Source: Candidatus Aenigmatarchaeota archaeon (GTDB lineage: Archaea; Aenigmatarchaeota; Aenigmatarchaeia; GW2011-AR5). Taken from it: a stretch of DNA of 52,013 nucleotides. The stretch covers positions 1 to 52,013 of the forward strand of contig JAWCLW010000005.1 in NCBI GenBank assembly GCA_039091535.1, in the 5' to 3' direction. The translations under genes and the position numbers were made by a program. The notes under the pieces were generated by a model. That model ran no database searches and had not been told where the DNA came from. It saw only the letters and a list, made by a program, of their open reading frames with translations. Of the stretch, positions 2,438 to 22,880 are shown one piece after another (the first letter of the stretch is position 1; the number at the start of each line of letters is the position of its first letter).

Positions 2438-2452
2438 TTACCACAACCCAAA

Positions 2453-3397
2453 TTAAGCTTTTTTATTTTCATATATACCTCTTTTTAATTGTTTTTTAAT
2501 AAATATTTCCATTCTTTTGTTATTTTTTAGATTCATATCAGCGAGAAGACCAAGTATTATAATCTGTATACCAAGCAGAATTAGGAATGCAGCAAGAACA
2601 ACTGAAGGTAAATGAATAATTTTGCCATAGATTATTTTTTCATACAAGATTAAACTTACTGGCCACAATGAGAATAATAGAAAAAATATTCCAATCATTC
2701 CAAAGAAATATATTGGTTTTGTGTCTCTCAGTAATAAAATAATTGTTTTTAAAATCAAGAATCCATCACGAATTGGGTGCAGTTTTGTTTTGCCAATTCT
2801 TTTTTTATAAAATAATGGAATTTCAAGTATTCTAAAATTATTTCTTATTGCTTCTATTGTAATTTCTGTTTCAATTTCAAATTTGTTGCTTAAAAGAATT
2901 ATATTGTCTAATTTCTTTTTGTTAAATGCTCTATATCCACTTAACATGTCAGTTATTTTTTTATTAAATAACCATTTAACAAAGAAGCTAAATATCTTGT
3001 TTCCTATTATGTTAAAATGAGATATAGAGTCTTTTTCTCTATATTTTAAACGTGTAGCAACAACCATATCAGCTCTGTTATCTAGTATTGGTTCTACAAG
3101 TTCATTCATTTTTTCTGCATCGTATGTCCCATCACCATCTATTGTAACAACAACTTCTGCATCTATTTTTTCTAGCGCCTCTTGTATTGCAGAACCTTTT
3201 CCAATACTTTCTTGCAAAATAACATTAGCACCACACTTCTTTGCTATATTTACTGTATTATCAGTAGAGTTACCATCTATAATTAGAATAGAGACAGATT
3301 TGTTCCTAATTTTTTTTGGTATTTTTTCTATAACGTTCTTTATACTTTTTTCTTCATTTAATGTAGGTATTATAACATAAATGTCATCTTTAAACAT
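2453..3397 (-). CDS. GT2 glycosyltransferase (polyprenol-phosphate glycosyltransferase-like) with C-terminal TM helices
   Basis: IIPTLNEE, DGNSTDNT, GKG, IDGDGTY, DMLSGYRAF, FEIETE; two hydrophobic C-terminal segments. Confidence 0.9.
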   Translation of the reverse strand: MFKDDIYVIIPTLNEEKSIKNVIEKIPKKIRNKSVSILIIDGNSTDNTVNIAKKCGANVILQESIGKGSAIQEALEKIDAEVVVTIDGDGTYDAEKMNELVEPILDNRADMVVATRLKYREKDSISHFNIIGNKIFSFFVKWLFNKKITDMLSGYRAFNKKKLDNIILLSNKFEIETEITIEAIRNNFRILEIPLFYKKRIGKTKLHPIRDGFLILKTIILLLRDTKPIYFFGMIGIFFLLFSLWPVSLILYEKIIYGKIIHLPSVVLAAFLILLGIQIIILGLLADMNLKNNKRMEIFIKKQLKRGIYENKKA

Positions 3398-3473
3398 TTA
3401 ATCACTTTATAAAGTTACTATGTATAGGAATTTTTTAAATGTTTAATTTATAGAATATCTTTCGTGATTTTAT

Positions 3474-4373
3474 ATGAATATGGATTTTGAATATATAAAA
3501 TGTAATTTATGTGGAAATAATGATTATACCATATTATACGATAATATGGGAATTCCATGCATTAATGGGTTTAAGGCTTCTGGTAATGAGATAAGCAAAG
3601 ACAGAATCGTAAAATGCAATATATGTGGACTTATTTATGTTAATCCGAGACTTAAAGAAGACATTATTTTGCTTAGTTATTCTAACGGTAAGGATGAAAA
3701 ATTTGTTTCTCAAAATAAATGGAGAGAGATGACATTTAAAAAATCGATGAAATTGATAAATAAGTATGCAAAAAAAGGTAGGCTATTAGATATAGGTACA
3801 GCAGGAGGAGCTTTTTTGCATGTTGCAAAAAAAGATGGATGGAATGTTTATGGAATTGAACCAAATAAATGGCTTTGCGATTGGGGTTTAAAACATTATG
3901 GAATCAAAATAAATCCAGGCACATTATTTGATTATAAATATCCAGACAATTATTTTGATTTGATAACTTTATGGGATGTGCTCGAGCATGTTGGCAACCC
4001 AATAAAAATGTTGAAAGAATGTCATAGAATCCTAAAAAAAGATGGAATTTTGCTTATTAATTATCCTGATATAGGAAGTGGTATAGCAAAAATAATGGGA
4101 AAAAAATGGGTTTTTCTACTTTCTGTTCATTTGTTTTATTTTACAAAAGACAGTATAAGACAAATGCTTGAAAAATCTGGTTATGAAATAATAAAGATAA
4201 AACCACATATTCAGACATTGAGCCTTGGTTATTTAGCAGAAAGGATGGAACCATATAACAAATCGATTTCAAAATTTTTAATAAAATTTGTAAAAGGAAT
4301 TAGAATTGACAATTTTGAGATACCTTATTGGCTTGGTCAGAGTTTAGTTTTGGCGAGAAAGGTGGATAAATGA
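3474..4373 (+). CDS. Class I SAM methyltransferase with N-terminal Zn-binding CxxC pairs
   Basis: CNLC...CNIC, LLDIGTAGG, FDLITLWDVLEH. Confidence 0.88.
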   Translation: MNMDFEYIKCNLCGNNDYTILYDNMGIPCINGFKASGNEISKDRIVKCNICGLIYVNPRLKEDIILLSYSNGKDEKFVSQNKWREMTFKKSMKLINKYAKKGRLLDIGTAGGAFLHVAKKDGWNVYGIEPNKWLCDWGLKHYGIKINPGTLFDYKYPDNYFDLITLWDVLEHVGNPIKMLKECHRILKKDGILLINYPDIGSGIAKIMGKKWVFLLSVHLFYFTKDSIRQMLEKSGYEIIKIKPHIQTLSLGYLAERMEPYNKSISKFLIKFVKGIRIDNFEIPYWLGQSLVLARKVDK

Positions 4374-5851
4374 AAGTTGTTTTAATAAACCCAAACATAG
4401 TAACACAAAAAAATGATTTTTTTGGTACTGGAATACCATATATGCCAATAACATTGGCTTATGCAGCAAGTTATCTCAGAAAAAAAGGTCATGAAATTAG
4501 TGTAATAGATGCATTTGGTGAAAATCCATGGAAGTTGAGAAAAATAGATGACAAATATATTCAGGGTCTTGATACGAATGAAATCATTAAAAAAATTGAT
4601 AAGAATACAGAAATTATATGCATATATGCTGGTCTTGTCGTGACACATGAAATAAATCTTGAAATAATAAAAAATATCAGAAAAAAATTTAATATTCCAA
4701 TAGTTGTTATAGAGAACACACAATCAGTTGTTGCCTATTCATTAAAAAATATTTTTATAGATTTTTTTAATTATGGTGCAAATTATGTTATTACTGGTGA
4801 ACCTGAAATAAGATTAGAAAAACTATTGAATTGCTTAGAAAAGAAAAAAAGTCTTAAAACAATAGATGGTTTGATTTTTAAAAAAGATGGTAAAATAATA
4901 ATTAATAAAAAAAAGAGTTTTATAAAAGATCTAGATGCTCTGCCATTTCCTGCTTGGGATTTATTTCCTTTAGAAAATTATTGGAAATTGGGATATGCTC
5001 ATGCACCATTATCATCAAAGAAATATTTACCAATGTTGACATCACGTGGCTGTATATATGATTGTGAATTTTGTATAATTCCAGAAATGAATAAAAGAAG
5101 ATGGAGATTCAGAAGTCCTGAAAATATTGTTGATGAAATTTTATATTGGAATAAAACTTATGGTATAAGAGAGTTTCATATAGAGGATTTGAATCCAACA
5201 ATTTCAAAGAAAAGAATAATTGATTTATCCAAACTTATTATCAGAAAAAAAATAAATATAAAATGGAAAATAGCCGCAGGAACAAAAATAGAACATATAG
5301 ACAAAAATACATTGAAGTGGATGAAAAAATCTGGTTGTAATTACATATCTTTTTCTCCGGAGTCTGGATCAAAAAATGTTTTAGAATTAATGCACAAACC
5401 TTTTGATCATCTATATGGATTAGAGATTGTTAAAAAAATGAAAAACAATAAAATAAAAACACAAGCCTGTTTTGTAATCGGTTTTCCAGGAGAAAATGAA
5501 AAAGATTTGAATGAAACAAAAAGATATATAAAAAAACTTACAAAAAATGGTCTTGACGAAGTTGCAATATTTATAATGACACCAATACCAGGTTCAAGAC
5601 AATACGGAAAAATTTCTGGTTATAAAAAAATTGATCAACTCACATTTACACCTATATGGAGAAGCGACTTCAAAAAACTTAATGATTTTAGAATTAAAAT
5701 TTATATAAAATTTATTTTGTGGAAACTTATTTACAATCCATTAAGCTTATTTAGACAATTTATTAGTTTGCTTATTGGAAGATATGAAACAAAGAGTGAG
5801 ATGACAATTATAAGAATTTTAAAGATGAACTGTGGAAGATGGTTTAGATGA
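4370..5851 (+). CDS. Cobalamin-binding radical SAM protein (class B methylase-like)
   Basis: N-terminal B12-binding-like domain, TSRGCIYDCEFC (CxxxCxxC), ESGS, IGFPGE. Confidence 0.9.
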   Translation: MKVVLINPNIVTQKNDFFGTGIPYMPITLAYAASYLRKKGHEISVIDAFGENPWKLRKIDDKYIQGLDTNEIIKKIDKNTEIICIYAGLVVTHEINLEIIKNIRKKFNIPIVVIENTQSVVAYSLKNIFIDFFNYGANYVITGEPEIRLEKLLNCLEKKKSLKTIDGLIFKKDGKIIINKKKSFIKDLDALPFPAWDLFPLENYWKLGYAHAPLSSKKYLPMLTSRGCIYDCEFCIIPEMNKRRWRFRSPENIVDEILYWNKTYGIREFHIEDLNPTISKKRIIDLSKLIIRKKINIKWKIAAGTKIEHIDKNTLKWMKKSGCNYISFSPESGSKNVLELMHKPFDHLYGLEIVKKMKNNKIKTQACFVIGFPGENEKDLNETKRYIKKLTKNGLDEVAIFIMTPIPGSRQYGKISGYKKIDQLTFTPIWRSDFKKLNDFRIKIYIKFILWKLIYNPLSLFRQFISLLIGRYETKSEMTIIRILKMNCGRWFR

Positions 5852-7230
5852 AAAGGGCTGTTATTTTAGGTGCTGGGATATCTGGACTTGTGGCAGCAAA
5901 TGAACTTGCAAAAGTGGGTATAGAAACAATAATATTAGAAAAAAGTGATACAGTTGGTGGTTTATGTGCAAGTTTCGAATATAAAGATTTTATTTTTGAT
6001 TATGGACCACATAAACTATATTCTCAGATACCAGGATTGATGAATTATATAAAAAATATACTTGGCGATAAATGTGTGATTGTTAAAAAAAGGAACAGCA
6101 TAAGACTTTTTCGAGATTATTTAAGATTTCCAATAGTTATAAAACAAATACCCTATGTTTTTGGATTGAATAATCTTATAAAAATATTTTTTAGTTATTT
6201 AAAGGCTAAGATAAAAAATGTTTTAAATAAAAAACCAATAATTTCGTATGAAGATTATTTTGTAAATAAATTTGGATCGTACATTTATTCTATTATGTTC
6301 AAGGAGTTTGCATATAAGGTATGGGGTGAACCAAAAAGATTATCAGAAGAACTTGCAAGAAGAAGAGTACCTATAAGTAGTATATTTTCTATGATAAAAA
6401 GAAAAGAAAAAAATAAAATAAGTGCTGATTATTTTTTCTATCCACAAAAAGGTATTGGTGAATTTTGTAATATAATTGCACAAGAATTTATAAAAAATGG
6501 TGGAAGAATTTTATTTAATACTAAACCAAGTAAAATAATCATTGAAGATGGAAAAGTTAGATTTTTGGAATATGTAAAAAACAAAGAAAAAAGAAAGATA
6601 AAAATAGATTATGTTATATCAACCATACCAATAAATGAACTTATTTATTTATTTGATACTATACCTGAAAATGTTAGAAAGGCTGCCAAAGATTTAAATT
6701 ATAGGTCTTTAATGCTTTTTTATATAATCTTAAATAAAGATAGAGTTCTCAAGGACAATTGGATATTTTTTCCAGAGAAAAAATATATAATTAACAGAAT
6801 TTCCGAACAAAAAAGCTTCAGTATACTTACAGCGCCAACAAATAAAACAAGCATAATAGCAGAAGTTACATATAATTCAAATGATAAGAAATTTCACAAA
6901 GAAAAAATAATTAAAAATGTAATTAACGATTTAGAAAAAGCAGGCATAATAAAGAGAGAGTGGATCGATGAGTTTTTTGTCAAAAAAATTGAAAACATTT
7001 ATCCAATATATAACATTGGATTTAGAATAAATCTCAATATAATATTTGATTTTATTCAAGATATAGAAAATCTATATACAATAGGTCGATACGGTCTTTT
7101 TAATTATAATAATATGGATCATTGCATAGATATGAGTATGCGTACTGCTCAGCATATTATTTCTGGTGGATCAAGAGAAAAATGGAGAGAACTTGTTAAA
7201 AGTTTCAATAATTATAGAATTATTGATTAA
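5848..7230 (+). CDS. FAD-dependent oxidoreductase (protoporphyrinogen oxidase / UDP-galactopyranose mutase-like)
   Basis: GAGISG, EK..VGG, FDYGPH, YPIY, GRYGLFNYNNMDH. Confidence 0.85.
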   Translation: MKRAVILGAGISGLVAANELAKVGIETIILEKSDTVGGLCASFEYKDFIFDYGPHKLYSQIPGLMNYIKNILGDKCVIVKKRNSIRLFRDYLRFPIVIKQIPYVFGLNNLIKIFFSYLKAKIKNVLNKKPIISYEDYFVNKFGSYIYSIMFKEFAYKVWGEPKRLSEELARRRVPISSIFSMIKRKEKNKISADYFFYPQKGIGEFCNIIAQEFIKNGGRILFNTKPSKIIIEDGKVRFLEYVKNKEKRKIKIDYVISTIPINELIYLFDTIPENVRKAAKDLNYRSLMLFYIILNKDRVLKDNWIFFPEKKYIINRISEQKSFSILTAPTNKTSIIAEVTYNSNDKKFHKEKIIKNVINDLEKAGIIKREWIDEFFVKKIENIYPIYNIGFRINLNIIFDFIQDIENLYTIGRYGLFNYNNMDHCIDMSMRTAQHIISGGSREKWRELVKSFNNYRIID

Positions 7231-8436
7231 GTGATTAAAATGACTATACAAGCAAAGATAAAGGTGGCAATGAAAATTTTAGATATTTTTGATAATTTAA
7301 TACGCTATATAAAACCAAACAAAAAAATTAGAATAAATAAAATAAAAAAGATATTGATTATAAAGAGTGATAAGCTTGGCGATGCAGTTAATTCTATATT
7401 TATAATATCTTCAATAAAAAAGTCTTTACCAGATAAAGAGATTCATATTCTTGCATCTGATAAAAATTCATTTATTTTTAATGAATTATACAAAGAACAT
7501 GTAATAAGAAAAAAATATATTTTCAAAAATAGCAATATATTAAATCTTAATGTGAACAAAAATTTTCCTATTGGATATATAAAATATCTAAAACTACTTT
7601 TTAGCAAAAATTATTTTGAATTAATAAAAAAAATAAAAAAGGAGAAATATGATTTGGTAATTGATCTTGTTGGAAAAAGACATTTGGCTATCCTATCAAA
7701 ACTAATTTCAAAAAGAACAATAGGCCCAAAGATTTCTGGCTTCACATGGCTATATGATTATGGTTTTGATAGATCGTGGACATATGAAAGTAAAAAGCAT
7801 ATTATAGAAAATTGGAAGGATCTAATAGATGAGGCATTGGGTATAAAATTAAATATAGAAAATGTTAAAATACCGATAAAAAGAATAAAGTCTGATATCC
7901 ATAAAAATTATATTTTATTTCATATTGGAGGTACAGATATAAGACGTTTTGAAAATGAGAAGATAATAAATATAATAAATAGAACTTCTTTATTATCAAA
8001 AATCTTTATAATAGATGATGTTGGACAAAGACATATAAAAGAAATAGAAAATGAGATAAAAAATAGAAATGTTACTTTTATAAAAATAAATTATTCATTA
8101 CCTCAATTAGCATGGCTTGCAAAAAATTCTAAACTATTTATTACATTTGATGGTGGGCATATGCATTATCTTTCTATGTTTACAAAAACTTTAGTTTTCT
8201 GGAGCTGTGGTGTTCTTGAGGCATGGATGCCATGGGATGGTTCAAAATATTCTTTGATTAAAAAATATCCAAATAAAACAATGGTTTTTAAATCAAAAAA
8301 TAAAGGACATAGGGTTCTTGTATATCCTACGATATATAGGCCTTGTTTTGATATTGGTTGTAAAAATAGAGAATGTTTGAAAAATATAAAATTAGAGCAA
8401 ATTATGGAAAATATAAAAGAAATGATAAGTGAATAA
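7231..8436 (+). CDS. GT9 glycosyltransferase (heptosyltransferase-like), divergent
   Basis: IIKSDKLGDAV, KYDLVIDL, FITFDGGHMH, C-terminal PC..C..C. Start may be ATG 7240. Confidence 0.8.
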   Translation: MIKMTIQAKIKVAMKILDIFDNLIRYIKPNKKIRINKIKKILIIKSDKLGDAVNSIFIISSIKKSLPDKEIHILASDKNSFIFNELYKEHVIRKKYIFKNSNILNLNVNKNFPIGYIKYLKLLFSKNYFELIKKIKKEKYDLVIDLVGKRHLAILSKLISKRTIGPKISGFTWLYDYGFDRSWTYESKKHIIENWKDLIDEALGIKLNIENVKIPIKRIKSDIHKNYILFHIGGTDIRRFENEKIINIINRTSLLSKIFIIDDVGQRHIKEIENEIKNRNVTFIKINYSLPQLAWLAKNSKLFITFDGGHMHYLSMFTKTLVFWSCGVLEAWMPWDGSKYSLIKKYPNKTMVFKSKNKGHRVLVYPTIYRPCFDIGCKNRECLKNIKLEQIMENIKEMISE

Positions 8437-8438
8437 AT

Positions 8439-9446
8439 ATGGGAAAAATTGCATGTATAACTTTCAATTATCTACATAAAAATACCGAATTATCAGCAAA
8501 ATCAATAGGTGCTGATATATATAAAGTAACAAAGGAACATGGCTCTAAAGCAACTGCGATATTTCGTTCAATTTGGCTTTCGATAAAACTAAAGAAATAT
8601 GAAACTTATTTAATAGATGCCGCGTGGGCTTTATTTATTCCATTAATTAAAAGACTAATTTTTAGAAATAAGATAATGGTCATTTATAGACTTAATAATC
8701 CATTCTTTAATGATACATGGTTTTTAAAAAATAAGAACCCATTTGAAAAGTTTATTATAAAAATTTTGAGAAAACAGGTCGATGGTATTATTGCTGTTTC
8801 AAGTGTTACTGCAAATGATGCAAAAATTCATAGAAAACCATATGTAATTGCATATTCTATGCTAGAAAATTTAGATGAATTTCTAAAAATAAAACCAAAT
8901 CTTAATACAAACAATTTTCTTACGATGGGCTATGCACCATACAAAGCTTTTGATATCACATTATCCGTTTTTCATGAAATAAGGAAGCATAAACCTGATT
9001 CAAAACTAATCTTTCTTGGTAAATATTCAAATAATGATATAAAAAAATATTATAAAAATTTAGATATGACTAATGTTGTCATTTGTGGTTATGTGAAAGA
9101 TGTTAAAAAATATCTTGAAGGTGCAAGCTATTTTATTGAATTTCCACATTATGAACCAGGACCAACATCTGTTTTGGAATCTATGGCAGCAGGTTTAATT
9201 TGCTTTTCTAATGAAAATCTAGGTCACAAGGATTTCATTAAAAAAGTTTCAAAGGATTTAATAATAAAATCCAAAGATCCAAAAAAGATAGCTAATGAAA
9301 TAATTAAAATAGTTGGTAATAATAAAAAGAAAAAAATAATTAGTAAAAAAAGTAAAGAGATAGCAAAATTATTCAGAAAAGAATATAGATTAAGAATGTT
9401 TAGAAAGGCATTTTTCAATATTTTATCAAAATTAGAACCACATTAA
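8439..9446 (+). CDS. GT4 glycosyltransferase
   Basis: DGIIAVS; E-x7-E motif in YEPGPTSVLESMAAG. Confidence 0.85.
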   Translation: MGKIACITFNYLHKNTELSAKSIGADIYKVTKEHGSKATAIFRSIWLSIKLKKYETYLIDAAWALFIPLIKRLIFRNKIMVIYRLNNPFFNDTWFLKNKNPFEKFIIKILRKQVDGIIAVSSVTANDAKIHRKPYVIAYSMLENLDEFLKIKPNLNTNNFLTMGYAPYKAFDITLSVFHEIRKHKPDSKLIFLGKYSNNDIKKYYKNLDMTNVVICGYVKDVKKYLEGASYFIEFPHYEPGPTSVLESMAAGLICFSNENLGHKDFIKKVSKDLIIKSKDPKKIANEIIKIVGNNKKKKIISKKSKEIAKLFRKEYRLRMFRKAFFNILSKLEPH

Positions 9447-9459
9447 ATGGTGAAAAAAA

Positions 9460-10446
9460 ATGTCGGATATAGCATTTATATTCTCAAAAAAGGCTCATGC
9501 AGCATCGCAGGAATTCGCAAAATCTATTAATGCGGATTTCTATTCTGTGAGCAGATATTCACTATACAAGATATTTACGATACCAAAATACAAGTATTAT
9601 TTTGTTGAGTCTGTGTTTGCATTAACATATCCTGTGATGAAGAGAAAAATATTAAGAGAAAAAAATAAAATAATCTTTCGTTGCAACTCAAATTTATTTT
9701 CAAATGAACCAAAAAGATATTTTCAAGGAAATTTTTTTGTTAGAAAATATATAAAATTTTTATTGAGAAACATTGACGGAATTATTGCTGTATCAAAGAT
9801 GGTAGAAAATGATGCAAAGAGAAGATGCAAAGAAGAAATTGGGAAAAAAATAAAAACAAAACTTGTTTATTCTTTCGTCGATAATCCAGAAAAATGGCTT
9901 AATGTAAAGCCAAATTTAAAATCAAAGAATTTTTTATATATTGGCTATATAAGGCATCATAAGGGCATAGATATTTTATTAAAGACATTTGAATTAATAA
10001 TGAAAAAAAATACAAATGTTAAATTATTCCTTGCTGGCATTAGAGATAGTGACCTTAAAAGATATGGATTAAAAGCTCCTAATAACGTTTATTTACTTGG
10101 TTTTATCAAAGATTTAGAAAAATATATGGAAAAATGCGCCTTTTATGTTACTACACCAAAGTATGAGCCAGGTCCAACTGCAAGCATCGAAGCTATGTGT
10201 GCTGGTCTTATACCTATTGTGAATTATATGACGGGACATAAGGACCACGTTAAGCAAGTAAGTAAAGATTTGATTATAAATTCATTGAATCCAAAAGATG
10301 TTGCAAACAAAATTCTTAAAATTATGAAAAGAAATGATTTGAAAAAATTGTCAAATAAGTCAAGAAAAATCGCATTGAAATATACGAAAGAAAAGATGCT
10401 TACCAAATTTAAGAAGGCATTTTATGATTTAATCAAGGAAACATGA
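9460..10446 (+). CDS. GT4 glycosyltransferase (paralog of upstream gene)
   Basis: DGIIAVS, HKGIDIL, YEPGPTASIEAMCAG; GGTGA SD-like sequence upstream. Confidence 0.87.
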   Translation: MSDIAFIFSKKAHAASQEFAKSINADFYSVSRYSLYKIFTIPKYKYYFVESVFALTYPVMKRKILREKNKIIFRCNSNLFSNEPKRYFQGNFFVRKYIKFLLRNIDGIIAVSKMVENDAKRRCKEEIGKKIKTKLVYSFVDNPEKWLNVKPNLKSKNFLYIGYIRHHKGIDILLKTFELIMKKNTNVKLFLAGIRDSDLKRYGLKAPNNVYLLGFIKDLEKYMEKCAFYVTTPKYEPGPTASIEAMCAGLIPIVNYMTGHKDHVKQVSKDLIINSLNPKDVANKILKIMKRNDLKKLSNKSRKIALKYTKEKMLTKFKKAFYDLIKET

Positions 10447-12607: not shown

Positions 12608-12656
12608 AAGTATTCACAATTTGTCTTATAGCATAAATCTTTTAAAATAAATATAA

Positions 12657-13538: not shown

Positions 13539-13566
13539 AAATACTCTCTATCAAGGAAAAGAATTT

Positions 13567-13587
13567 AAGTATGATTATTTCATACTT
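13567..13587. promoter_or_regulatory. Inverted repeat AAGTATGA-N5-TCATACTT, candidate RHH operator in a divergent promoter
   Basis: Perfect 8-bp arms overlapping TATA-like TTTAAGTA, 14 bp before the RHH gene start. Confidence 0.6.
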
Positions 13588-13601
13588 TATAGGATATTAA
13601 T

Positions 13602-14339: not shown

Positions 14340-14358
14340 GGATATTAGAAAAAAGTAA

Positions 14359-15471: not shown

Positions 15472-15496
15472 ATAAGATTAATCTTTTAAACTATTA

Positions 15497-16465
15497 ATGA
15501 TAAAGAATAAAGGTATGATACTTGTAACAGGTTCAGCTGGGTTTATAGGTTTTCATATATGTAAAAGACTTCTTGCTGATGGATATAGTGTGATCGGTGT
15601 TGATAATTTTAATAACTATTATGATGTTAAACTTAAGAAAGCTAGGAATGATGAATTAAAGAAAAATAGAAGATTCAATCTTATTAAGAAGAATATATTA
15701 AATTTAACTAAAAAAGATATTAAAGATGTTGAATTTATTTTTCACGAGGCAGCATATGCTGGTGTTAGGAATTCTGTTGAAAACCCAATACTTTATGACA
15801 AAGTAAATGTTCATGGAACAGTTAGACTGTTAAAATTATCTGTAGATTCGAATGTTAAAAAGTTTTTATTTGCTTCATCCTCATCTGTTTATGGTGATTT
15901 GAATAAATTTCCAACACCAGAAACATATGAAACAAATCCTATAAGTCCTTATGGTGTCTCAAAACTTGCTGCCGAAAAATATTGTAATGCATTCTACAAA
16001 TGCTATGGTTTACCAACAATAAGTTTAAGATATTTTACTGTTTATGGTCCTTGGGGAAGACCTGATATGCTTATTATGAAAGTAATATTAAGTTGTTATG
16101 AGAATAAACCATTAATTCTTTTTAAAAAAGATAAAAAGATTATAGATTTTAGGAGGGATTTCTCATATATAGATGATGTTGTTGAGGCTAATATACTTGC
16201 TATGAAAAGCAATATAAAAAATGATATTTTCAATGTTAGTGCAAAAAAAGATGTTTCTGTAAAATATGTAATAGATTTCATAGCAAATGAATTAGGAAGA
16301 AAACCAAATTTTGTTGAGGCCGAACCAAGCCCAGCTGACCCGTTAAGAACATTAGGTGATATAAGTAAGATAAAAGAAAAACTTGGTTTTGAACCAAAGA
16401 CAAGTATAGAGGAAGGAATAAGAAACACGATAAATTGGTATAAGCAATATAAGGGAATAAAATGA
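15497..16465 (+). CDS. NAD-dependent epimerase (UDP-glucuronate 4-epimerase-like)
   Basis: GSAGFIG, ASSSSVYG, YGVSK, LRYFTVYGPWGRPDM. Confidence 0.9.
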   Translation: MIKNKGMILVTGSAGFIGFHICKRLLADGYSVIGVDNFNNYYDVKLKKARNDELKKNRRFNLIKKNILNLTKKDIKDVEFIFHEAAYAGVRNSVENPILYDKVNVHGTVRLLKLSVDSNVKKFLFASSSSVYGDLNKFPTPETYETNPISPYGVSKLAAEKYCNAFYKCYGLPTISLRYFTVYGPWGRPDMLIMKVILSCYENKPLILFKKDKKIIDFRRDFSYIDDVVEANILAMKSNIKNDIFNVSAKKDVSVKYVIDFIANELGRKPNFVEAEPSPADPLRTLGDISKIKEKLGFEPKTSIEEGIRNTINWYKQYKGIK

Positions 16466-16655
16466 AATTATTAATGGCATCATTTCAGGACTTTCAATGT
16501 GAAAAATATTTTATTTAAAATTTTAGAATTTATGGAAAATATAATTCTCTTTTTTATTATTTTAAACCCATTTTAATTGCTTACAATAATAATCAAAAGT
16601 TCTTAGCTGAAATGAATTTTATGTGTCGCATTTCCCAAAAGATTAGCAAAGAAAA

Positions 16656-16782
16656 TTAGAGTGCATAAATTTTAATTGCCCGGAATTTTATTATGGGTTG
16701 ATGTTGTTTATGATCGTCTTTAATGATATCAAGATTTATATATCCTTTTGGCCAACTACCACAACCTATATTCAATTTTCAT
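16656..16782 (-). pseudogene. Second SAM methyltransferase remnant (N-terminus only)
   Basis: ATG AAA (+1 nt) then LNIGCGSWPKGYINLD, followed by an early stop. Confidence 0.6.
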
Positions 16783-16818
16783 TGTTGACATTATTTTATT
16801 TCAGCAAAAGCTATTTTT

Positions 16819-18078
16819 TTATTTTGTAGGATCAACTACTCTACCAATGAATAAAATATTTCCTGTATCTTTTTGTTGAATTATGAATATGAATGGGTGG
16901 TCTGCTTTGAAAATATTTCTTTGCGCAGCACTTCCCATCATACCAATAGCAGTTGTGGCAGCAGCTTCTGTTCCTTTTTCATCAACTTTGACGTAAGCTT
17001 GATGGATTATAAAATCAATCCAAATTTTTTCTGCGGTAGTCATTCCTGAGAAATCGGCTAAATTCATATCAAAAGCAGTTGGCATTCCTAGAGTACTCAA
17101 AATATCTTTTAAAGAATATTTTGTATTAAACTCAAATTTTGGAAGATATATCGCATCTAATCTCGTTTCCTGCATTTTGCTTTTCCATTCTTCAAGTTTT
17201 TCTGGTGTTAAAGAGGACTCTATTATATCAAGATTTTCTGTAGGCAATAGAATTAGCATAGAAATTTCTTCACTCTTATAAGGCAATTCCAAAATTTGTA
17301 GATCTCCTAAATCAGCATAATTAAACATCGCTTTATCCGGTTTCATATACATTGTTGGAACTTTCACAACATTTGTTGGTGTTATTTTAAAATCCATTTC
17401 CCTCGTATCTTTTGGGTCAAACTGCCATACCCATGTTCCTTTAAAATAGATAGCATTTGTAATGATTAATCTTATTAGTGGACTCAAAGAACTTGGAGGA
17501 AGTAAGTCTTTAATTTTATTATTAGTCTGTTCTTCAATAAAGCTATTAATTGTTTGCCTTGATTTTTCTGTTTCTTTAACAAAATCTACATTTGCTGCTT
17601 TTCCACCATAATATCGTTCAACTCTATTTGTGTAATCTTCAAGCAAAGGATAATCTTGCTGAACCCATAGAGCATTTCCTGTTCTCAGTTCATAATCCTT
17701 ATATCCTTTATTAATCTCATTGTAAATTGCAGCAAAATTTGGTCTTAAAATATCATTTTCTGGAAAATGAAAAACAGACTTTATTTCATCTGCTGTTTTT
17801 CCTTTTGTCCCTTCGTAAGCAATTGCTAAGGCAGCAAAAATACTATAAGGAGAATAGAATATATTTCCTTTTTCAGATTTATCTAATTCAGAATATAAAT
17901 CAAAAGCGAATTTGTTATTTGCATTAACTACCTCCTGAACGCCTTGTGAGGTAAAACCTGTATCATCCGCTTTTGGTGGTTGTTTTGGTTCATAAGGAAA
18001 AATAAACAATACTGCACCAGCTGTTACAATACTAACCATAAATAATACAATTATTCCATTAATCAAAATTTTGTTCAT
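16819..18078 (-). CDS. Serpin (serine protease inhibitor) with N-terminal signal/anchor
   Basis: NIFYSPYS, NAIYFKGTW, hinge EKGTEAAATT, FKADHPFIFII, LFIGRVVDP. Confidence 0.95.
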   Translation of the reverse strand: MNKILINGIIVLFMVSIVTAGAVLFIFPYEPKQPPKADDTGFTSQGVQEVVNANNKFAFDLYSELDKSEKGNIFYSPYSIFAALAIAYEGTKGKTADEIKSVFHFPENDILRPNFAAIYNEINKGYKDYELRTGNALWVQQDYPLLEDYTNRVERYYGGKAANVDFVKETEKSRQTINSFIEEQTNNKIKDLLPPSSLSPLIRLIITNAIYFKGTWVWQFDPKDTREMDFKITPTNVVKVPTMYMKPDKAMFNYADLGDLQILELPYKSEEISMLILLPTENLDIIESSLTPEKLEEWKSKMQETRLDAIYLPKFEFNTKYSLKDILSTLGMPTAFDMNLADFSGMTTAEKIWIDFIIHQAYVKVDEKGTEAAATTAIGMMGSAAQRNIFKADHPFIFIIQQKDTGNILFIGRVVDPTK

Positions 18079-18156: not shown

Positions 18157-19026
18157 TTATTTCAGCAAATTTTTGAATTCAACAGAATTTACATAATTTA
18201 TTATTTCATTTCTTATTTCAGAATGCTTCAACGAAAAATAGATTACTGTCTTTATGTAATCTTCCTTATTTCCTATATCGAAACGTTTTCCATTGAATTT
18301 ATAGGCATATATTTTTTGCAAATTTTTCAAGAGCTTTAATGCATCTGTAAGTTGTATTTCATTGTTTATGCCTGGTTTTGTTTTTTCTATGCAATCAAAT
18401 ATTTCTGGCATCAAAACATATCGACCAATTATTCCAAAATTAGACGGGGCTTCTTCGATTTTCGGCTTTTCAATTAAATCACTAATAAGAAATACAGAAT
18501 CTTCAATTTTTTCATATTTTATAATTCCATAAAAGCTTATTTTGTTTTTCGGAACTTCTTCAACAGCTATTACAGAAGAATTGTATTTTTTATTTAATTC
18601 TATTAATTGTTTAGTTACAGGGATTTCTGATTCTAAGATATCATCACCAAGCAAAACAGCAAATGGTTCATTGTTTATATGCTTTTTTGCACAGTAAATG
18701 GCATGTCCAAGACCAAGTGGCTCTTGCTGTCTTATATAATGAATATCCACATTTTCAAGCAATTCCTTTATTTCATCTAACTTTTTCTTTATGTTACTAT
18801 TTTTTAACATATTTTCTAATTCTGGGGATTTATCAAAATGATCTTCTATCGACCTTTTTCCACGACCAGTAATTATTATAATATCATCTATACCAGATGA
18901 AACAGCCTCTTCTACAACATATTGAATAGCAGGTTTATCAACTATTGGTAACATCTCTTTTGGCTGTGCTTTTGTAGCTGGAAGAAATCTAGTACCCAAA
19001 CCAGCAGCAGGTATTACAGCCTTCAT
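18157..19026 (-). CDS. galU: UTP--glucose-1-phosphate uridylyltransferase
   Basis: KAVIPAAGLGTRFLPATKAQPKEMLP, GLGHA, EIQLTDA; start at ATG 19026. Confidence 0.95.
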   Translation of the reverse strand: MKAVIPAAGLGTRFLPATKAQPKEMLPIVDKPAIQYVVEEAVSSGIDDIIIITGRGKRSIEDHFDKSPELENMLKNSNIKKKLDEIKELLENVDIHYIRQQEPLGLGHAIYCAKKHINNEPFAVLLGDDILESEIPVTKQLIELNKKYNSSVIAVEEVPKNKISFYGIIKYEKIEDSVFLISDLIEKPKIEEAPSNFGIIGRYVLMPEIFDCIEKTKPGINNEIQLTDALKLLKNLQKIYAYKFNGKRFDIGNKEDYIKTVIYFSLKHSEIRNEIINYVNSVEFKNLLK

Positions 19027-19030
19027 CAAA

Positions 19031-20323
19031 TCACCAACATATACCTTCAAAGTGCTTGACTTTATTCTTATCCAATGTTTTTCTTCCTTCGATAATTATT
19101 TTATTTTTCATTACAGAAAAATCTTTGTCTGTTAACATTTTGAATTCATCCCAATCAGTTAAAATAAGGCATGCATCTGCATTTTTTAGTGCATCATAAA
19201 TATTTTTTGTATATTTTATATTTGGTATTATTTTTTTCATATTGTTTATCGCCTTTGGATCAAATGCATATATATTTGCCTTTTCATTTAATAATTTTTT
19301 GATTATATCAATTGAAGCAGAATCACGAACATCATCTGTTCCTGCTTTGAAAGCAAGACCAAGAATTGCAATTTTTTTATTTTTAAAATTCTTAATTTTA
19401 TTTTTTAATAATTCTATTATGAGCAATCTTTGTTTCCTATTTACATCTAAAACACTATTCAATATCTTCATTTCATATTTCAAATCTTTTGCCTTATTTA
19501 TTAATGCGGATATATCTTTTGGAAAACATGAACCACCAAAACCAATACCAGCATTCAAAAAATATGGAGCAATTCTTTTATCGTATCCCATAGCTTTTGC
19601 AACATCATAAGTATCTATATTTAATTTTTTGCATATATTACCAATTTCATTTATGAAAGATATTTTTGTTGCAAGAAACGCGTTTGATGCATATTTCACC
19701 ATTTCAGCAGTTCTTAAATTTATTCTGATTATTGGAGCTTTGAAATCTTTATACAATCTCTCTAATATATCACCAGATTTTTTGTCATACTCACCAATTA
19801 CTATTCTATCTGGATTTAGAAAATCTTCTAAAGCAAATCCTTCTCTTAGAAATTCAGGATTCATGCATACGCCAAAATCCTTTCCTACTTTCTTATTTGA
19901 ATATTTTTCTAGAATTGGTATAATAATTTCTTCTGTTGTTTTTGGTAGAACCGTAGATTTTACAACAATTAAATGATATGTTTTTTTGTTTTTTAATGAT
20001 TTGCCAATTTGTTTTGATGCGGTTTTTATATAATTCAAATTTATACTACCATTCTTCATGGATGGTGTTCCAACAGTTATAAATGTAATATCAGAATTAA
20101 GTATTGCATAATTTAAGTTATTTGTCGCAGAAATCATTTTTTTATTCAAACATCTCTTTAGATTTTTTTCAAGACTTTTCTCATAAAATGTTGGTATACC
20201 ATTATTTATGCTTTTAATTTTGTTTTCATCTTTATCTGTACATATTACTTTATTATTTTTTAATGCAAATCCAACACCAGTACATAATCCTACATATCCA
20301 GAACCAACTATCGAAATATTCAT
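19031..20323 (-). CDS. ugd: UDP-glucose 6-dehydrogenase
   Basis: GSGYVG, NPEFLREG, GFGGSCFPKD, GLAFK..TDDVR. Confidence 0.93.
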   Translation of the reverse strand: MNISIVGSGYVGLCTGVGFALKNNKVICTDKDENKIKSINNGIPTFYEKSLEKNLKRCLNKKMISATNNLNYAILNSDITFITVGTPSMKNGSINLNYIKTASKQIGKSLKNKKTYHLIVVKSTVLPKTTEEIIIPILEKYSNKKVGKDFGVCMNPEFLREGFALEDFLNPDRIVIGEYDKKSGDILERLYKDFKAPIIRINLRTAEMVKYASNAFLATKISFINEIGNICKKLNIDTYDVAKAMGYDKRIAPYFLNAGIGFGGSCFPKDISALINKAKDLKYEMKILNSVLDVNRKQRLLIIELLKNKIKNFKNKKIAILGLAFKAGTDDVRDSASIDIIKKLLNEKANIYAFDPKAINNMKKIIPNIKYTKNIYDALKNADACLILTDWDEFKMLTDKDFSVMKNKIIIEGRKTLDKNKVKHFEGICW

Positions 20324-20347
20324 AAATAATTCTTCAAGATTAGTCTT

Positions 20348-20932
20348 TTAAAATTTATTTTCATATAGTATTAATGCAGCCTGATATAGATTATCTGCAA
20401 CTATTACGTTATTTCTAGATTCAATAATTTTTTCTTTATAATTTTTTTCAAATCTTTTCCCATTTTTCTTTATTAAAATACCTTTACCACCAAGATTTAA
20501 CATTGGCTCAATACCTTTCCAGCTATCATCTATGCAAAAACATTTTTTTGGATCTAAGTTATAATCTTTTATAGCTTGTTCAAACATACCAGTTTTTGGT
20601 TTTCTACAATTACAATCAATTTTATATTTTTCTATTTTTGCTTTTGTTGGATGGTGTGGACAAAAATAATAATTAAATTTACTTTTTATACCATTTTTTT
20701 CTAAAATAGAAAACATATAGTTCATTAATTTATGAAGATCATCTTCTGTATAAATACCTCTGGCTATTCCGGATTGATTTGTGATTATTATTTTATATGC
20801 TTTGATTTTATCTAATAATTTTAATCCTTCTATAACACCTGGAATAATTTCAAAATCTTCTATTTTATAAATATAACCATTTCTATTGTAGTTTATTGTT
20901 CCATCTCTATCAATAAAAATGGCCTTATCCAT
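20348..20932 (-). CDS. gmhB: D-glycero-D-manno-heptose 1,7-bisphosphate phosphatase
   Basis: DRDGT, TNQSGIARG, CPHHP...CNCRKP; heptose-operon context. Confidence 0.88.
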   Translation of the reverse strand: MDKAIFIDRDGTINYNRNGYIYKIEDFEIIPGVIEGLKLLDKIKAYKIIITNQSGIARGIYTEDDLHKLMNYMFSILEKNGIKSKFNYYFCPHHPTKAKIEKYKIDCNCRKPKTGMFEQAIKDYNLDPKKCFCIDDSWKGIEPMLNLGGKGILIKKNGKRFEKNYKEKIIESRNNVIVADNLYQAALILYENKF

Positions 20933-20934
20933 AA

Positions 20935-21354
20935 TTAATCATATATACTTTTTATTAAATTAAATTCATCTTCAGGAACTTTTTCACTTTTCTTGTCTTC
21001 TATTCTATAACTATCACTTTCTTTATGATATGTTGATATTTCTAGAATTAGACTATTTTTCAAGCCTGTAAATCTATGTAATGTTTCAGGAAGTATACGG
21101 ATGCTATCACCTCTCTCCAATACAGCCATCCCATCATAAGCTTCTATCAAAACCCTTCCATATAATATATAAAATGTTTCATCCTTTTCTTTATGATAAT
21201 GCATACTACTTCTATAACCTTCCCTTAATTCTAATATTTTTCCACAATATTTTTCATTATTAACTATCCATATTTCATTCCCCCAAATCTTATCATGAAT
21301 TTCTGGTTTATTGAGCATTTTTTTCATTTTTTTACCTTCAATAAATTTTGCCAT
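20935..21354 (-). CDS. Cupin-domain protein (sugar isomerase-like)
   Basis: KIWGNE, SMHYHKEKDETFY, LHRF, EIST. Confidence 0.8.
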   Translation of the reverse strand: MAKFIEGKKMKKMLNKPEIHDKIWGNEIWIVNNEKYCGKILELREGYRSSMHYHKEKDETFYILYGRVLIEAYDGMAVLERGDSIRILPETLHRFTGLKNSLILEISTYHKESDSYRIEDKKSEKVPEDEFNLIKSIYD

Positions 21355-21417
21355 ATTAAATTCCCCTGATCTTTATTTTATAATTTTGATTATTAGTTTT
21401 GATACAATAGCTATCTT

Positions 21418-21900
21418 TTATTTCCCTCTTATCTTTTTAATTATGTCTGTTGTAGATATACCTTCTACCTTTCCTACAAGCATAATTTTACCACCATAAC
21501 TTTCAACCGCATTCCTTTCTATTATTTTATCTATTGTATAATCACCACCTTTTACATGTATATCTGGCTTTAATTTATTTATCCATTTTATTGGATTAAG
21601 ATCATCAAAAAGAAAAACAAAGTCAACACATTCTAAAGCAGCAAGTATCTCCATTCTTTCATTTTCAGGTATGATTGGTCGATTCCCCCCTTTTATTTTT
21701 TTAATTGATTTGTCGCTATTCACACCAACTATCAAAACATCTCCAAGTTTTTTTGCTTCACGAAGATAACGTATATGACCAATATGCAATATATCAAAAC
21801 ATCCATTTGTTGTTACAATTTTTTTTCCATCTTTTCTTAGTTTATTAACAATATCAACAATCTCATTTAATGATTTTATTTTATCCATAAAAATCAACAT
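21418..21900 (-). CDS. rfaE2: D-glycero-beta-D-manno-heptose 1-phosphate adenylyltransferase (HldC / RfaE domain II)
   Basis: TNGCFDILHIGH, GVNSDKSI, RPI, VKGGDY, GISTT. Confidence 0.9.
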   Translation of the reverse strand: MLIFMDKIKSLNEIVDIVNKLRKDGKKIVTTNGCFDILHIGHIRYLREAKKLGDVLIVGVNSDKSIKKIKGGNRPIIPENERMEILAALECVDFVFLFDDLNPIKWINKLKPDIHVKGGDYTIDKIIERNAVESYGGKIMLVGKVEGISTTDIIKKIRGK

Positions 21901-22880
21901 TGTTTGTAATATTTTTTCAAAGCTTCTTTTAATTCATCTCTCGTAACAGTCGCAGTGCCAGGCTTTCTTACAACAAGCCCACCAATAGTATTTGAAATAT
22001 ATGCAGCCTCTTCCAGGCTTGAATTGGAAGCTAATGATAATGACAAACCAGCTATTACACTATCACCAGCTCCAGTTATGTCTACTATCTGGCCATCTCC
22101 TATTGCAGGTATGTCTATGCATTTTCCATTTTCAAATATTGATAATCCTTCCTCACCTTTTGTTACAATCATAGCATTTATACAGAGTTCTTTTATTAGA
22201 TTATATATTTTTTCTTTGTTATTTTCATATTTGCCTATATTTAATTCTATTTCATTTTTATTTGGTTTTATAAGATAAGCACCTCGAAACTTACCTAAAT
22301 TATTTTTTGGATCAACAATAACCTTTTTTCCGATACTATTTGATAAATCTATGATATATTTACACACATCTTCTTTGCAAACGCCTTTGTTGTAATCAGA
22401 AATAACAATTATATCAGATTTGTTTACTAAATCTTTTAATGTATTTTTGAATTTTTCAAAATCTATATTTTGTTTATCATCTTCTCTATCTCGTCTTATA
22501 AATAATTGCTGTTTATATCTATTATCTATAAAACGCTCTTTTAATGTTGTTATACCACCTTTTTTTGTTATAAGATAAGAATCATCTATATTGTTTTTTT
22601 TCATAACTTTTCTAAGAATCCAACCTTCATGATCATCGCCTATTATACCTATTAGATATGGGATGCCATCTAAATTTACAATATTTTTTGCTACGTTACC
22701 AGCTCCACCAGGTGTCTCAAGATTTCCACTTTCTTTTAGAATAATACCAGGTGCTTCAGGTGATACTCGTGTTATATCACCATATGTAAATCTGTCAAGC
22801 ATAATATCTCCAATAATTCCAACTTTTTTGCCAGAAAATTTATCAACAATTTCTAATAGTCTATCTACATTATATTTCAT
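21894..22880 (-). CDS. rfaE1: D-glycero-beta-D-manno-heptose 7-phosphate kinase (HldA / RfaE domain I)
   Basis: GDIMLD, RVSPEAP, GGAGNVA, SDYNKG, VDPK, DITGAGD. Confidence 0.92.
   Translation of the reverse strand: MKYNVDRLLEIVDKFSGKKVGIIGDIMLDRFTYGDITRVSPEAPGIILKESGNLETPGGAGNVAKNIVNLDGIPYLIGIIGDDHEGWILRKVMKKNNIDDSYLITKKGGITTLKERFIDNRYKQQLFIRRDREDDKQNIDFEKFKNTLKDLVNKSDIIVISDYNKGVCKEDVCKYIIDLSNSIGKKVIVDPKNNLGKFRGAYLIKPNKNEIELNIGKYENNKEKIYNLIKELCINAMIVTKGEEGLSIFENGKCIDIPAIGDGQIVDITGAGDSVIAGLSLSLASNSSLEEAAYISNTIGGLVVRKPGTATVTRDELKEALKKYYKQC

Follow-up and report, generated by a model that had tools for sequence, protein, structure and literature searches.

How does an archaeon activate heptose, and what does it build from it, when the first enzyme of the textbook route is not found in its genome assembly? 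The question is raised by a sugar-gene island at positions 2453–22880 of the first 52,013 bases (the window) of a 59,493-base contig, JAWCLW010000005.1, from a Candidatus Aenigmatarchaeota archaeon (DPANN), whose genome assembly (673,598 bases, 14 contigs) has a completeness of 88.29% and a contamination of 0.42%. The island is packed with 20 open reading frames (ORFs) of at least 100 amino acids (aa), with hardly a gap between them, and is predicted to encode an ADP-heptose route together with family 9 glycosyltransferases (GT9), as the first-pass annotation of this DNA had proposed; HldC scores above its cut-off, HldA and GmhB give strong matches, and GT9 matches are present. The reading favoured here, which is considered probable, is that of a native surface-glycan island, in which a cupin has displaced GmhA in the ADP-heptose operon, and GT9, GT4, and GT2 enzymes build a heptose oligosaccharide for AglB. 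Sequence comparison underlies all of it: gene content, native origin, the lack of a GmhA match, the positional replacement, the fusions, and the mutual exclusion are computed results, and what the cupin acts on, which donor is made, which lipid carries the glycan, and what finally accepts it are inferred from them.

The heptose operon and the place of GmhA

Six minus-strand genes, hldA-hldC-cupin-gmhB-ugd-galU, follow one another with gaps or overlaps of at most 63 bp and therefore form one operon. The first-pass annotation had read this co-oriented run as rfaE1-rfaE2-cupin-gmhB-ugd-galU, and both the ORFs and the family matches agree with it:

21894–22880, minus strand: HldA-type D-glycero-beta-D-manno-heptose-7-phosphate kinase of the PfkB fold (PF00294, 143.6 bits; TIGR02198 rfaE_dom_I, 286.9 bits, E 1.7e-85, full-length, below the cut-off of 345), with a 7-bp overlap with the HldC start
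21418–21900, minus strand: HldC heptose-1-phosphate adenylyltransferase (TIGR02199, 207.5 bits, above the cut-off of 181.5), with the C-terminal motif K-V-E-G-I-S-T-T
20935–21354, minus strand: metal-binding cupin of 139 aa, proposed sedoheptulose-7-phosphate isomerase in place of GmhA (Cupin_2, 32.8 bits, cut-off 27.2)
20348–20932, minus strand: GmhB-type heptose-1,7-bisphosphate 7-phosphatase, HAD-IIIA (NF006506, 146.7 bits, cut-off 178; TIGR00213, 132.9 bits, cut-off 149.6; HAD-IIIA subfamily model passed, 88.7 vs 44.6)
19031–20323, minus strand: Ugd/AglM-like UDP-glucose 6-dehydrogenase (TIGR03026, 470.4 bits; AglM, 479.8 bits, below the cut-off of 670)
18157–19050, minus strand: GalU, UTP-glucose-1-phosphate uridylyltransferase (TIGR01099, 386.6 bits, above the cut-off of 326.8)

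The operon would supply ADP-D-glycero-beta-D-manno-heptose as well as UDP-glucose and UDP-glucuronate. In the proposed route, the metal-dependent cupin would turn sedoheptulose-7-phosphate into D-glycero-D-manno-heptose-7-phosphate, having displaced GmhA in place; HldA would then phosphorylate C1, GmhB would remove the 7-phosphate, and HldC would carry out the adenylylation. The bacterial ADP-L-glycero-beta-D-manno-heptose pathway (GmhA, HldE or HldA and HldC, GmhB, and HldD, with the transferases WaaC, WaaF, and WaaQ) shares with the island the split HldA and HldC, GmhB, and the GT9s, one of which passes the heptosyltransferase II cut-off and has Veillonella 3TOV and Escherichia coli WaaF (1PSW) as nearest structures. 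The window differs in lacking GmhA and a clear HldD, in the cupin in the GmhA slot, in the absence of a WaaA or LpxC match, and in its archaeal host.

GmhA converts sedoheptulose-7-phosphate to D-glycero-D-manno-heptose-7-phosphate, the seven-carbon counterpart of the phosphomannose isomerase (PMI) reaction, and a PMI-like cupin would thus be a chemically natural substitute for it. HldA, GmhB, and HldC, listed by the first-pass annotation as the set that makes ADP-heptose, are not sufficient, because an isomerase is also needed. GmhA (TIGR00441, cut-off 209) was not found in a genome-wide search of the 88%-complete assembly, the best score being 17.8 bits for a 577-aa SIS protein on contig C9.

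Among 40 relatives, GT9 matches above the cut-off occur in nine (ten with one weak match), and seven of the nine (G002, G004, G008, G021, G023, G029, and G035) have a strong HldC (E 1.5e-57 to 3.1e-44); in relatives without an over-cut-off GT9, HldC is no better than 5.7e-26. GmhA lies within 2 kb of HldC in five of the seven, and beside a GT9 on another contig in G029; in G002, GmhA was not found despite the strong HldC. The cluster of G021 reads HldA-HldC-(HldC-like)-GmhA-GmhB-Ugd-GalU-like-GT9c, as against HldA-HldC-cupin-GmhB-Ugd-GalU in the window. By this collinearity with the GmhA-bearing clusters of relatives, the cupin occupies the GmhA slot of an otherwise collinear cluster. HldA-GmhA fusions of 502–509 aa are found in G004, G008, and G023, and matching HldA-cupin fusions occur among the cupin homologues. 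Judged from position and family, the cupin most likely acts as a cupin-type sedoheptulose-7-phosphate isomerase in place of GmhA. What is new in this locus is that GmhA was not found and a cupin stands in its place; if the proposed role is true, this is a clean non-orthologous gene displacement in a textbook pathway. A search of open-access PMC and bioRxiv literature returned no work linking a cupin to GmhA or to phosphoheptose isomerase.

A cupin conserved throughout the family was ruled out, as only 3 of the 40 relatives have a match, the best of them, at 36% identity, coming from a genome that has neither GT9 nor HldC. G002, which provides the sister sequence of the window HldC, has HldA, HldC, and GT9 and neither GmhA nor a clear cupin. 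In its cluster (L051 on C101), the ORFs at 1327–2502 and 4267–5118 (391 and 283 aa) match no Pfam family and are candidates for another solution to the first step.

Taken by itself, an ADP-heptose/GT9 island in an archaeon is no rarity and no novelty. Archaeal NDP-heptose enzymes, in isomerase/kinase/phosphatase/nucleotidyltransferase sets making ADP-heptose, were reported by Tang et al. (Science, 2024), according to a commentary (PMC11461863); heptose occurs in the Thermoplasma N-glycan (PMC11407970); and in one DPANN order, of Woesearchaeota type, 54 of the 151 genomes sampled have HldC (E <= 1e-25). The first-pass view of the system as unusual for archaea therefore does not hold, and its headline is no novelty in itself, heptose/GT9 islands being common in DPANN. 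Open-access PMC and bioRxiv items on heptosyltransferase or heptose with DPANN, in the parts consulted, describe no such island. The HldA-GmhA fusions in relatives of this archaeon fit the isomerase/kinase combinations of Tang et al. As the commentary describes their survey, HldC homologues were intersected with the three other known enzyme types, a criterion under which a GmhA-less set like that of the window would be scored as incomplete; no cupin is mentioned in the commentary (PMC11461863). The same source, on Tang et al., states that NTP use is broader when Arg opens the (F/L)xxGxSTT motif, whose first residue is otherwise Phe or Leu (PMC11461863). The window HldC has Lys at this position (K-V-E-G-I-S-T-T), and the nucleotide on the activated heptose could therefore be other than ADP.

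The cupin family

The family to which the cupin belongs is large, with 3,907 cluster representatives at E <= 0.001, of which 1,306 reach E <= 1e-10. All four metal ligands (H52, H54, E59, and H93) are conserved without exception across 25 homologues. An AlphaFold model of the cupin (predicted local distance difference test score, pLDDT, 92.5) has the barrel and His/His/Glu/His metal site of cupin-type sugar(-phosphate) isomerases, and its best PDB matches in Foldseek are KdgF, ranking first, the Thermococcus phosphomannose isomerases 7ZVY and 7ZVM, and D-lyxose isomerases. The cupin PMIs of T. kodakarensis and T. barophilus (7ZVY, 7ZVM) and the D-lyxose isomerases share with it the single small barrel and the metal site (Foldseek E 4e-8 to 1.4e-7, TM score 0.57–0.66 on the query), and the chemistry proposed for the cupin would be the C7 analogue of the PMI reaction. 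They differ from it in sequence (19–22% identity), and the window cupin family is linked and fused to heptose-pathway enzymes. The cupin scored 30.2 bits vs 20.8 with Lyx_isomer (PF07385), no stretch passing alone, and only 20 bits with GMP_PMI.

Among the 150 best homologues, 41 are at least 210 aa long, and 34 of these were scanned against Pfam. PfkB, the HldA-type kinase domain, is fused to the cupin in 22 of the 34, in either order. The natural fusion P0032 (587 aa) reads PfkB-cytidylyltransferase-cupin and P0084 (809 aa) reads GT9-cupin-PfkB, each with three heptose-pathway activities on one polypeptide. Single cases are a cytidylyltransferase-cupin fusion (P0043) and fusions of the cupin with an NTP-transferase (P0104), with an RmlD-type short-chain dehydrogenase/reductase (SDR; P0177), and with a methyltransferase (P0086).

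Loci were also collected by a profile scan of genome contigs (nine-row alignment), from which the best 80 of 175 relatives were kept and their neighbours identified by BLASTP with the window proteins. The loci come from Woese-, Pace-, and Nanoarchaeota, phyla of the candidate phyla radiation (CPR), TM6, Bdellovibrionota, and others. Among these best 80, HldA is a neighbour in 41, HldC in 35, GmhB in 21, GT9c in 17, and the NTP-transferase in 15; a common order is cupin-SDR-HldA-GmhB-HldC, and at 12 loci the cupin match lies within an ORF with HldA as best hit. Of 35 genomes with cupin and hld loci (two of them unpublished, G046 and G057), none exceeds the GmhA cut-off, and 29 give only partial hits to long SIS proteins or nothing.

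The relation between cupin and GmhA was also followed in 151 genomes of one order, that of G048 (Woesearchaeota-type), drawn by taxonomy and not by cupin, with thresholds set by the author (HldC, E <= 1e-25; strong GmhA, E <= 1e-50; strong cupin, E <= 1e-40). Three unpublished genomes enter the counts, G205 (HldC-positive, GmhA type) and G194 and G185 (HldC-negative). The 54 HldC-positive genomes comprise 29 with strong GmhA only, 13 with strong cupin only, 12 with neither, and none with both (Fisher p = 4.7e-6, a description and not a formal test, because relatives do not count as independent and the thresholds were chosen by hand). Every one of the strong-cupin genomes has HldC (13 of 13), as against 41 of the remaining 138, and in at least 8 of these 13 no more than 3 kb separates the cupin from HldC.

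It is probable that this small metal-dependent cupin family (at least 1,306 representatives at E <= 1e-10) is an unrecognised sedoheptulose-7-phosphate isomerase that has repeatedly displaced GmhA in DPANN, CPR, and other lineages, and that here works with a GSU2086-family enzyme and GT9s (three clear, one marginal) on a heptose-rich N-glycan. If this is true, surveys that require GmhA undercount ADP-heptose producers, predicted producers extend to many ultra-small archaea and bacteria, and a large family annotated only as 'cupin domain protein' gains a function. ADP-heptose is both a building block of lipopolysaccharide (LPS) and a signal sensed by the immune receptor ALPK1 (an innate-immune agonist), and finding its producers needs every enzyme of the route to be recognised.

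Several Woesearchaeales-type genomes (G123:C22, G138:C103, G146:C27, and G167) have a second, paralogous pair, either next to the main heptose operon or away from it. One partner is a SIS protein of about 107–117 bits to GmhA, the other an HldC-like protein of about 106–120 bits; a transketolase-like gene sometimes accompanies them, and the pair may make a different activated sugar.

Glycosyltransferases, modifying enzymes, and the probable acceptor

The remaining island genes are these:

16819–18078, minus strand: serpin with a hydrophobic N-terminal stretch as anchor (PF00079, 392.6 bits)
15497–16465, plus strand: SDR-family NDP-sugar epimerase/dehydratase, substrate not assignable (PF01370, 184.7 bits; GalE 168.7, TviC 157.1, and heptose_epim 144.2 bits, all below cut-off)
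14359–15471, minus strand: GT9c (PF01075, 119.1 bits in the window scan, 120.1 in the genome scan)
13602–14339, plus strand: NTP-transferase of sugar-1-phosphate type (PF00483, 82.5 bits)
12657–13538, minus strand: GSU2086-family protein of 293 aa, deoxyhypusine-synthase-like, NAD fold (NF052581, 384.1 bits, above the cut-off of 250)
11477–12607, minus strand: GT9b (PF01075, 118.4 bits in the window scan, 119.5 in the genome scan; TIGR02195 heptosyltransferase II, 142.5 bits, above the cut-off of 134.6)
10443–11480, plus strand: GT9a (PF01075, 109.9 bits in the window scan, 110.7 in the genome scan)
8439–9446 and 9460–10446, plus strand: two GT4 genes (PF00534, 67.4 and 80.9 bits)
7231–8436, plus strand: GT9d, divergent GT9-like (PF01075, 22.1 bits vs cut-off 22; TIGR02201 heptosyltransferase III, NCBIfam, E 1.1e-12)
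5848–7230, plus strand: FAD oxidoreductase, UDP-galactopyranose-mutase-like (Pfam/NCBIfam), with a 4-bp overlap with the preceding gene
4370–5851, plus strand: B12-binding radical S-adenosylmethionine (SAM) enzyme (Pfam/NCBIfam), with 4-bp start/stop overlaps
3474–4373, plus strand: SAM methyltransferase (Pfam/NCBIfam), with a 4-bp overlap with the next gene
2453–3397, minus strand: AglJ-like GT2, probable dolichyl-phosphate hexosyltransferase (TIGR04182, 286.3 bits, below the cut-off of 325; PF00535, 85.5 bits)

All four GT9 matches of the genome lie within the island. Three of the four GT9 genes named by the first-pass annotation are clear (PF01075, 120.1, 119.5, and 110.7 bits), and the fourth is marginal (22.1 bits vs cut-off 22); its two GT4 genes and its GT2, which is AglJ-like, were borne out by family matches. 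The four GT9 proteins (TRANSFERASES) are 28–30% identical to each other. The nearest structure of GT9b is the Veillonella GT9 3TOV (E 3.5e-27), with E. coli WaaF (1PSW) at E 4.2e-19, and GT9c has the same two, 3TOV being nearest. The roles of the GT9 motifs, an N-terminal G-D and a C-terminal D-x-G-x-M-H, are known from work on HepI, and both are kept in GT9b and GT9d (D-G-G-x-M-H in the latter). GT9c has orthologues of 42–46% identity in five relatives, and its named homologues are in Aenigmarchaeota metagenome-assembled genomes (the nearest), Woesearchaeota, and Methanocaldococcus. Two cultured Methanocaldococcus strains (sp. FS406-22 and M. bathoardescens) carry homologues at 41% identity, and with such conserved GT9 orthologues the glycan chemistry is checkable there. 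The NTP-transferase adjoins GT9c in G004, G008, G021, and G023 and shares the same locus in G005.

From the methyltransferase (3474) to GT9a (11480) the plus-strand genes are translationally coupled, with 4-bp overlaps and gaps of 0–13 bp, and the methyltransferase, B12-radical-SAM, and FAD enzymes at 3474–7230 are predicted to be sugar-modifying enzymes coupled to the glycosyltransferase run. For the gene at 15497–16465, the earlier name 'uronate epimerase' could not be kept, as the SDR scores below the cut-offs of GalE, TviC, and heptose epimerase and is not assignable. The rest of the gene list matched, save that the serpin, the GSU2086-family protein, and the NTP-transferase had gone unnamed. 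In the proposed scheme, the GT9s (three clear, one divergent), the two GT4s, and the AglJ-like GT2 would assemble, on the cytoplasmic side of the membrane, a heptose oligosaccharide carried by dolichyl phosphate; its sugars would be modified by the methyltransferase, the B12-radical-SAM, FAD, and SDR enzymes, and the GSU2086-family enzyme; and a single Wzx-like flippase, followed by AglB, would bring the glycan to surface proteins.

The GSU2086-family protein appears from its gene neighbourhoods to be a second uncharacterised enzyme travelling with heptose operons. The family has 8,000 scored candidates, about 50% identity across phyla, and the names 'hypothetical' or 'deoxyhypusine synthase family'; the nearest homologues of the window protein are archaeal. 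It occurs in 10 of the 151 genomes, eight of them HldC-positive and the other two GmhA-positive, and in at least seven of the ten its gene lies between or beside gmhA and hldC. In Geobacter sulfurreducens, GSU2086 lies between hldE (GSU2085) and gmhA (GSU2087), and in transposon sequencing of electrode-grown cells it shows the same growth defect as these two genes, -3.2 vs -3.1 and -3.7 (PMC5585712). The window gene belongs to the same NCBIfam family, and DPANN members are also found inside heptose operons; it differs from the Geobacter operon described there in lying beside a GT9 and not between hld genes (PMC5585712). In a model of the window protein (pLDDT 86), the fold is similar to that of deoxyhypusine synthase and of the ArgZ/AgrE LOR/SDH domain (TM score 0.54–0.61), two groups with structures solved with bound NAD; a family profile run against PDB sequences gave nothing below E 0.03. 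As a guess from the fold, the enzyme might modify a heptose intermediate by transient oxidation.

GT9 enzymes of the LPS pathway act on a Kdo-lipid A acceptor, and the claim that no such machinery accompanies the island extends beyond the window: WaaA (PF04413) and LpxC (PF03331) were not found in the 88%-complete genome, while control searches responded in Gram-negative genomes; the search did not extend to KdsA/KdsB or LpxA/B/D. The absence of WaaA and LpxC matches argues for a non-LPS acceptor, in line with the earlier suggestion of a different archaeal glycan, and the presence of AglB, one flippase, and the AglJ-like GT2 makes a dolichol-linked N-glycan, assembled by GT9, GT4, and GT2 enzymes and transferred by AglB, the likeliest acceptor, as we infer. 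A genome-wide search for aglB, which had been suggested as a check, gave a single STT3/AglB match (78.6 bits) on contig C7. The gene, unless miscalled, is split (locus L006, 504–2712, minus strand) into a 413-aa STT3 membrane ORF and, after 10 bp, a 318-aa ORF with Y-W-D-P-G, a variant of the AglB signature (WWDYG-type). The STT3 open frames of relatives are also short (300–522 aa), and the split may therefore be a family trait rather than an error. The sole Polysacc_synt (Wzx/AglR-type) flippase match of the genome (102.3 bits, above cut-off) lies 2.5 kb from AglB on C7. In relatives, STT3 is about 5 kb from the GT9 block in G008 (C1, 80.6 kb vs 86.6–90.0 kb) and in G023 (C25), and about 15 kb from it in G004.

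In N-glycosylation of the Haloferax type, AglJ and further glycosyltransferases build on dolichyl phosphate, and the flippase AglR and AglB follow. The window genome shares with it an AglJ-like GT2, an AglM-like Ugd, a Polysacc_synt flippase, and AglB; it differs in that AglJ and AglM are below their equivalog cut-offs and AglB is split, and the Haloferax pathway includes neither GT9 nor heptose. That an archaeal N-glycan can contain heptose has a chemical precedent in Thermoplasma acidophilum (review, PMC11407970), which belongs to another phylum; the review passage concerned does not discuss the genes for this heptose, which is not known to involve a GT9. The island thus offers a concrete proposal for what archaea do with heptose, with GT9s beside AglJ/AglB-type machinery.

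Origin of the island and rival explanations

The island is native to the archaeal genome, a conclusion that composition, an independent assembly, and synteny in five relatives support jointly. As the first-pass annotation noted, it stands beside archaeal housekeeping genes: the same contig encodes RadB, archaeal TopA, a type-4 uracil-DNA glycosylase, an aCPSF1-like nuclease, CDC48, a type II methionine aminopeptidase, tRNA ligases, and carbamoyl-phosphate synthase. The tetranucleotide correlation between the island and the rest of the genome is 0.9947, where 46 equal-sized chunks have a 5th percentile of 0.990 and a median of 0.9954. The stretch is present in two hot-spring metagenome runs of one study (X1, X2). 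Of the Logan contigs of X1, one covers 2116–16944 and another (16,665 nt) runs from 16954 into the housekeeping genes, with 0 differences and depths of 8.9 and 9.05; X1 is possibly the source sample, and these contigs then count as a second assembly and not as a second sample. X2 has short identical pieces of the stretch. The single metatranscriptome from that study gave no contig matching it, a result that does not bear on expression either way.

Synteny is carried by the right flank:

22974–24391, plus strand: orf203 (no family) and a DUF2797 protein (64.6 bits), divergent neighbours of hldA

The gene order DUF2797-orf203 <> HldA-HldC-...-Ugd-GalU-like-GT9c-NTP-transferase is complete in G004 and G021; G008 and G023 have the same order up to the GalU-like gene, with the GT9c-NTP-transferase block elsewhere, and G035 shares the DUF2797/orf203/HldA junction. 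With orf203 and DUF2797 adjoining HldA in all five of these relatives, the pair appears to be the native right border of the island; the two genes are perhaps co-regulated with it.

That the island is instead a chimeric bacterial insert or a binning contaminant is very improbable, even though its GC content (26.6%) is the lowest of all 20-kb chunks of the genome (minimum elsewhere 27.5%) and its left end bears a truncated integrase together with a variable stretch of high depth. Tetranucleotide composition is inside the genome's own range, a single independent contig of even depth connects the hld operon with the housekeeping genes, the flanks are syntenic in five relatives, and the nearest homologues of GT9c and of the GSU2086-family protein are archaeal. 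Composition, the X1 assembly, and flank synteny all contradict the insert, which was rejected; the coverage check called for earlier thus came out in favour of archaeal DNA. Takeover of the hldA-hldC-cupin-gmhB block from Woesearchaeota was examined in two trees and not resolved by them. In the HldC tree (43 rows, careful search), this genome pairs with G002 (95/87) and the Aenigmatarchaeota rows require at least three changes; in the HldA tree (47 rows, quick version), it sits on a long branch.

Several observations weigh against the favoured reading of a native island in which a cupin isomerase feeds an AglB-dependent glycan. The trees just described do not resolve the operon source, the donor, or the order of events. 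HldA and GmhB fall under their NCBIfam cut-offs, GmhA could lie in the unassembled 12% of the genome, and the cupin fold does not by itself identify the substrate: KdgF ranks first, and in one homologue the cupin is joined to an NTP-transferase, the arrangement of classical GMP/PMI enzymes. Of the 35 cupin and hld genomes, 6 do have a GmhA-like SIS protein of full length (56–162 bits); in the 151-genome sample, 4 of the 13 strong-cupin genomes have a weaker SIS match (60–118 bits), in three cases a paralogue of about 107–118 bits, and the 12 genomes with neither isomerase make up part of the 54 with HldC. GT9c has Glu in place of the Asp of the N-terminal G-D (G-E), GT9a has Asn in the C-terminal D-x-G motif (N-G-G-P-M-H), and AglB is on another contig and in two ORFs. 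Finally, and as the main loose end, neither transketolase nor transaldolase gave a match in the 88%-complete genome, and sedoheptulose-7-phosphate may come from its missing 12% or from a host. Transketolase is present in three of five GmhA-type relatives and, in the 151-genome sample, in 12 of 13 cupin-type, 24 of 29 GmhA-type, and 42 of 97 HldC-negative genomes; the cupin type as a class therefore has sedoheptulose-7-phosphate.

Two other roles for the cupin have to be set against these data. An ordinary phosphomannose isomerase (fructose-6-phosphate to mannose-6-phosphate), or another sugar isomerase feeding GDP-mannose or another donor for the same glycan while a real GmhA sits in the unassembled part, is unlikely. 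Weak PF01050 matches in homologues, some of which JGI names 'mannose-6-phosphate isomerase-like', the one cupin-NTP-transferase fusion, the Thermococcus PMI among the fold matches, and a genome only 88% complete speak for it; yet a PMI would have no reason to occur in fusions with HldA-type kinases (22 of the 34 long homologues), HldE, or GT9, it would not be expected to exclude GmhA (none of 54 HldC-positive genomes has both), and relatives keep GmhA at exactly this operon position. The pair of GT9c and NTP-transferase is kept in GmhA-type relatives and cupin-type Woesearchaeota alike; the NTP-transferase is thus tied to GT9c, has no cupin link, and is no evidence for a PMI role. Less probable still is a later-acting NDP-heptose epimerase or modifying enzyme that works with an SDR, another isomerase making the heptose-7-phosphate. 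The GDP-heptose C3/C5 epimerases of Campylobacter are cupins that act on NDP-heptose together with an SDR, many Woesearchaeota operons read cupin-SDR-HldA-GmhB-HldC, and one cupin is fused to an RmlD-like SDR. Against this, no SDR adjoins the cupin in the window, the invariant His/His/Glu/His site fits metal-dependent aldose-ketose isomerases while RmlC-type epimerases are metal-free, and the exclusion of GmhA would go unexplained, with 13 of the 54 HldC-positive genomes left without a first step.

The alternative of most weight leaves the pathway and the cupin isomerase as proposed and changes the product: in place of an N-glycan, the GT9s would make a glycolipid or lipoglycan, a secreted polymer, or an O-linked glycan. 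It is possible, if doubtful. To our knowledge, no archaeal GT9 has a demonstrated acceptor, AglB stands outside the island, and the initiating enzyme family PF00953 (WecA/AglH) was not found in the genome, although control genomes responded. The N-glycan is favoured over such products by the only flippase match adjoining AglB, by AglB lying 5–15 kb from the GT9 block in three relatives, and by the AglJ-like dolichyl-phosphate glycosyltransferase that heads the island.

In at least seven genomes (G175:C1 61310, G100:C26 63946, G115:C64 7069, G122:C38 89, G146:C11 13327, G154:C137 1543, and G188:C1 1857), a gene with a transketolase N-terminal domain is the immediate neighbour of gmhA or hldC, and precursor supply seems, from this arrangement, to be built into the heptose operon there. 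The serpin at 16819–18078 is within the island and probably not a pathway member; it has no counterpart in the syntenic clusters fetched from relatives, and the genome that hosts it is a 0.67-Mb DPANN genome. At the left border, positions 1400–2116 of the window have a depth of 28 vs 9–14, about three times that of the island, with several variant short contigs, and a truncated XerA-like integrase lies at 1485–1991; this stretch looks like a repeated or mobile element.

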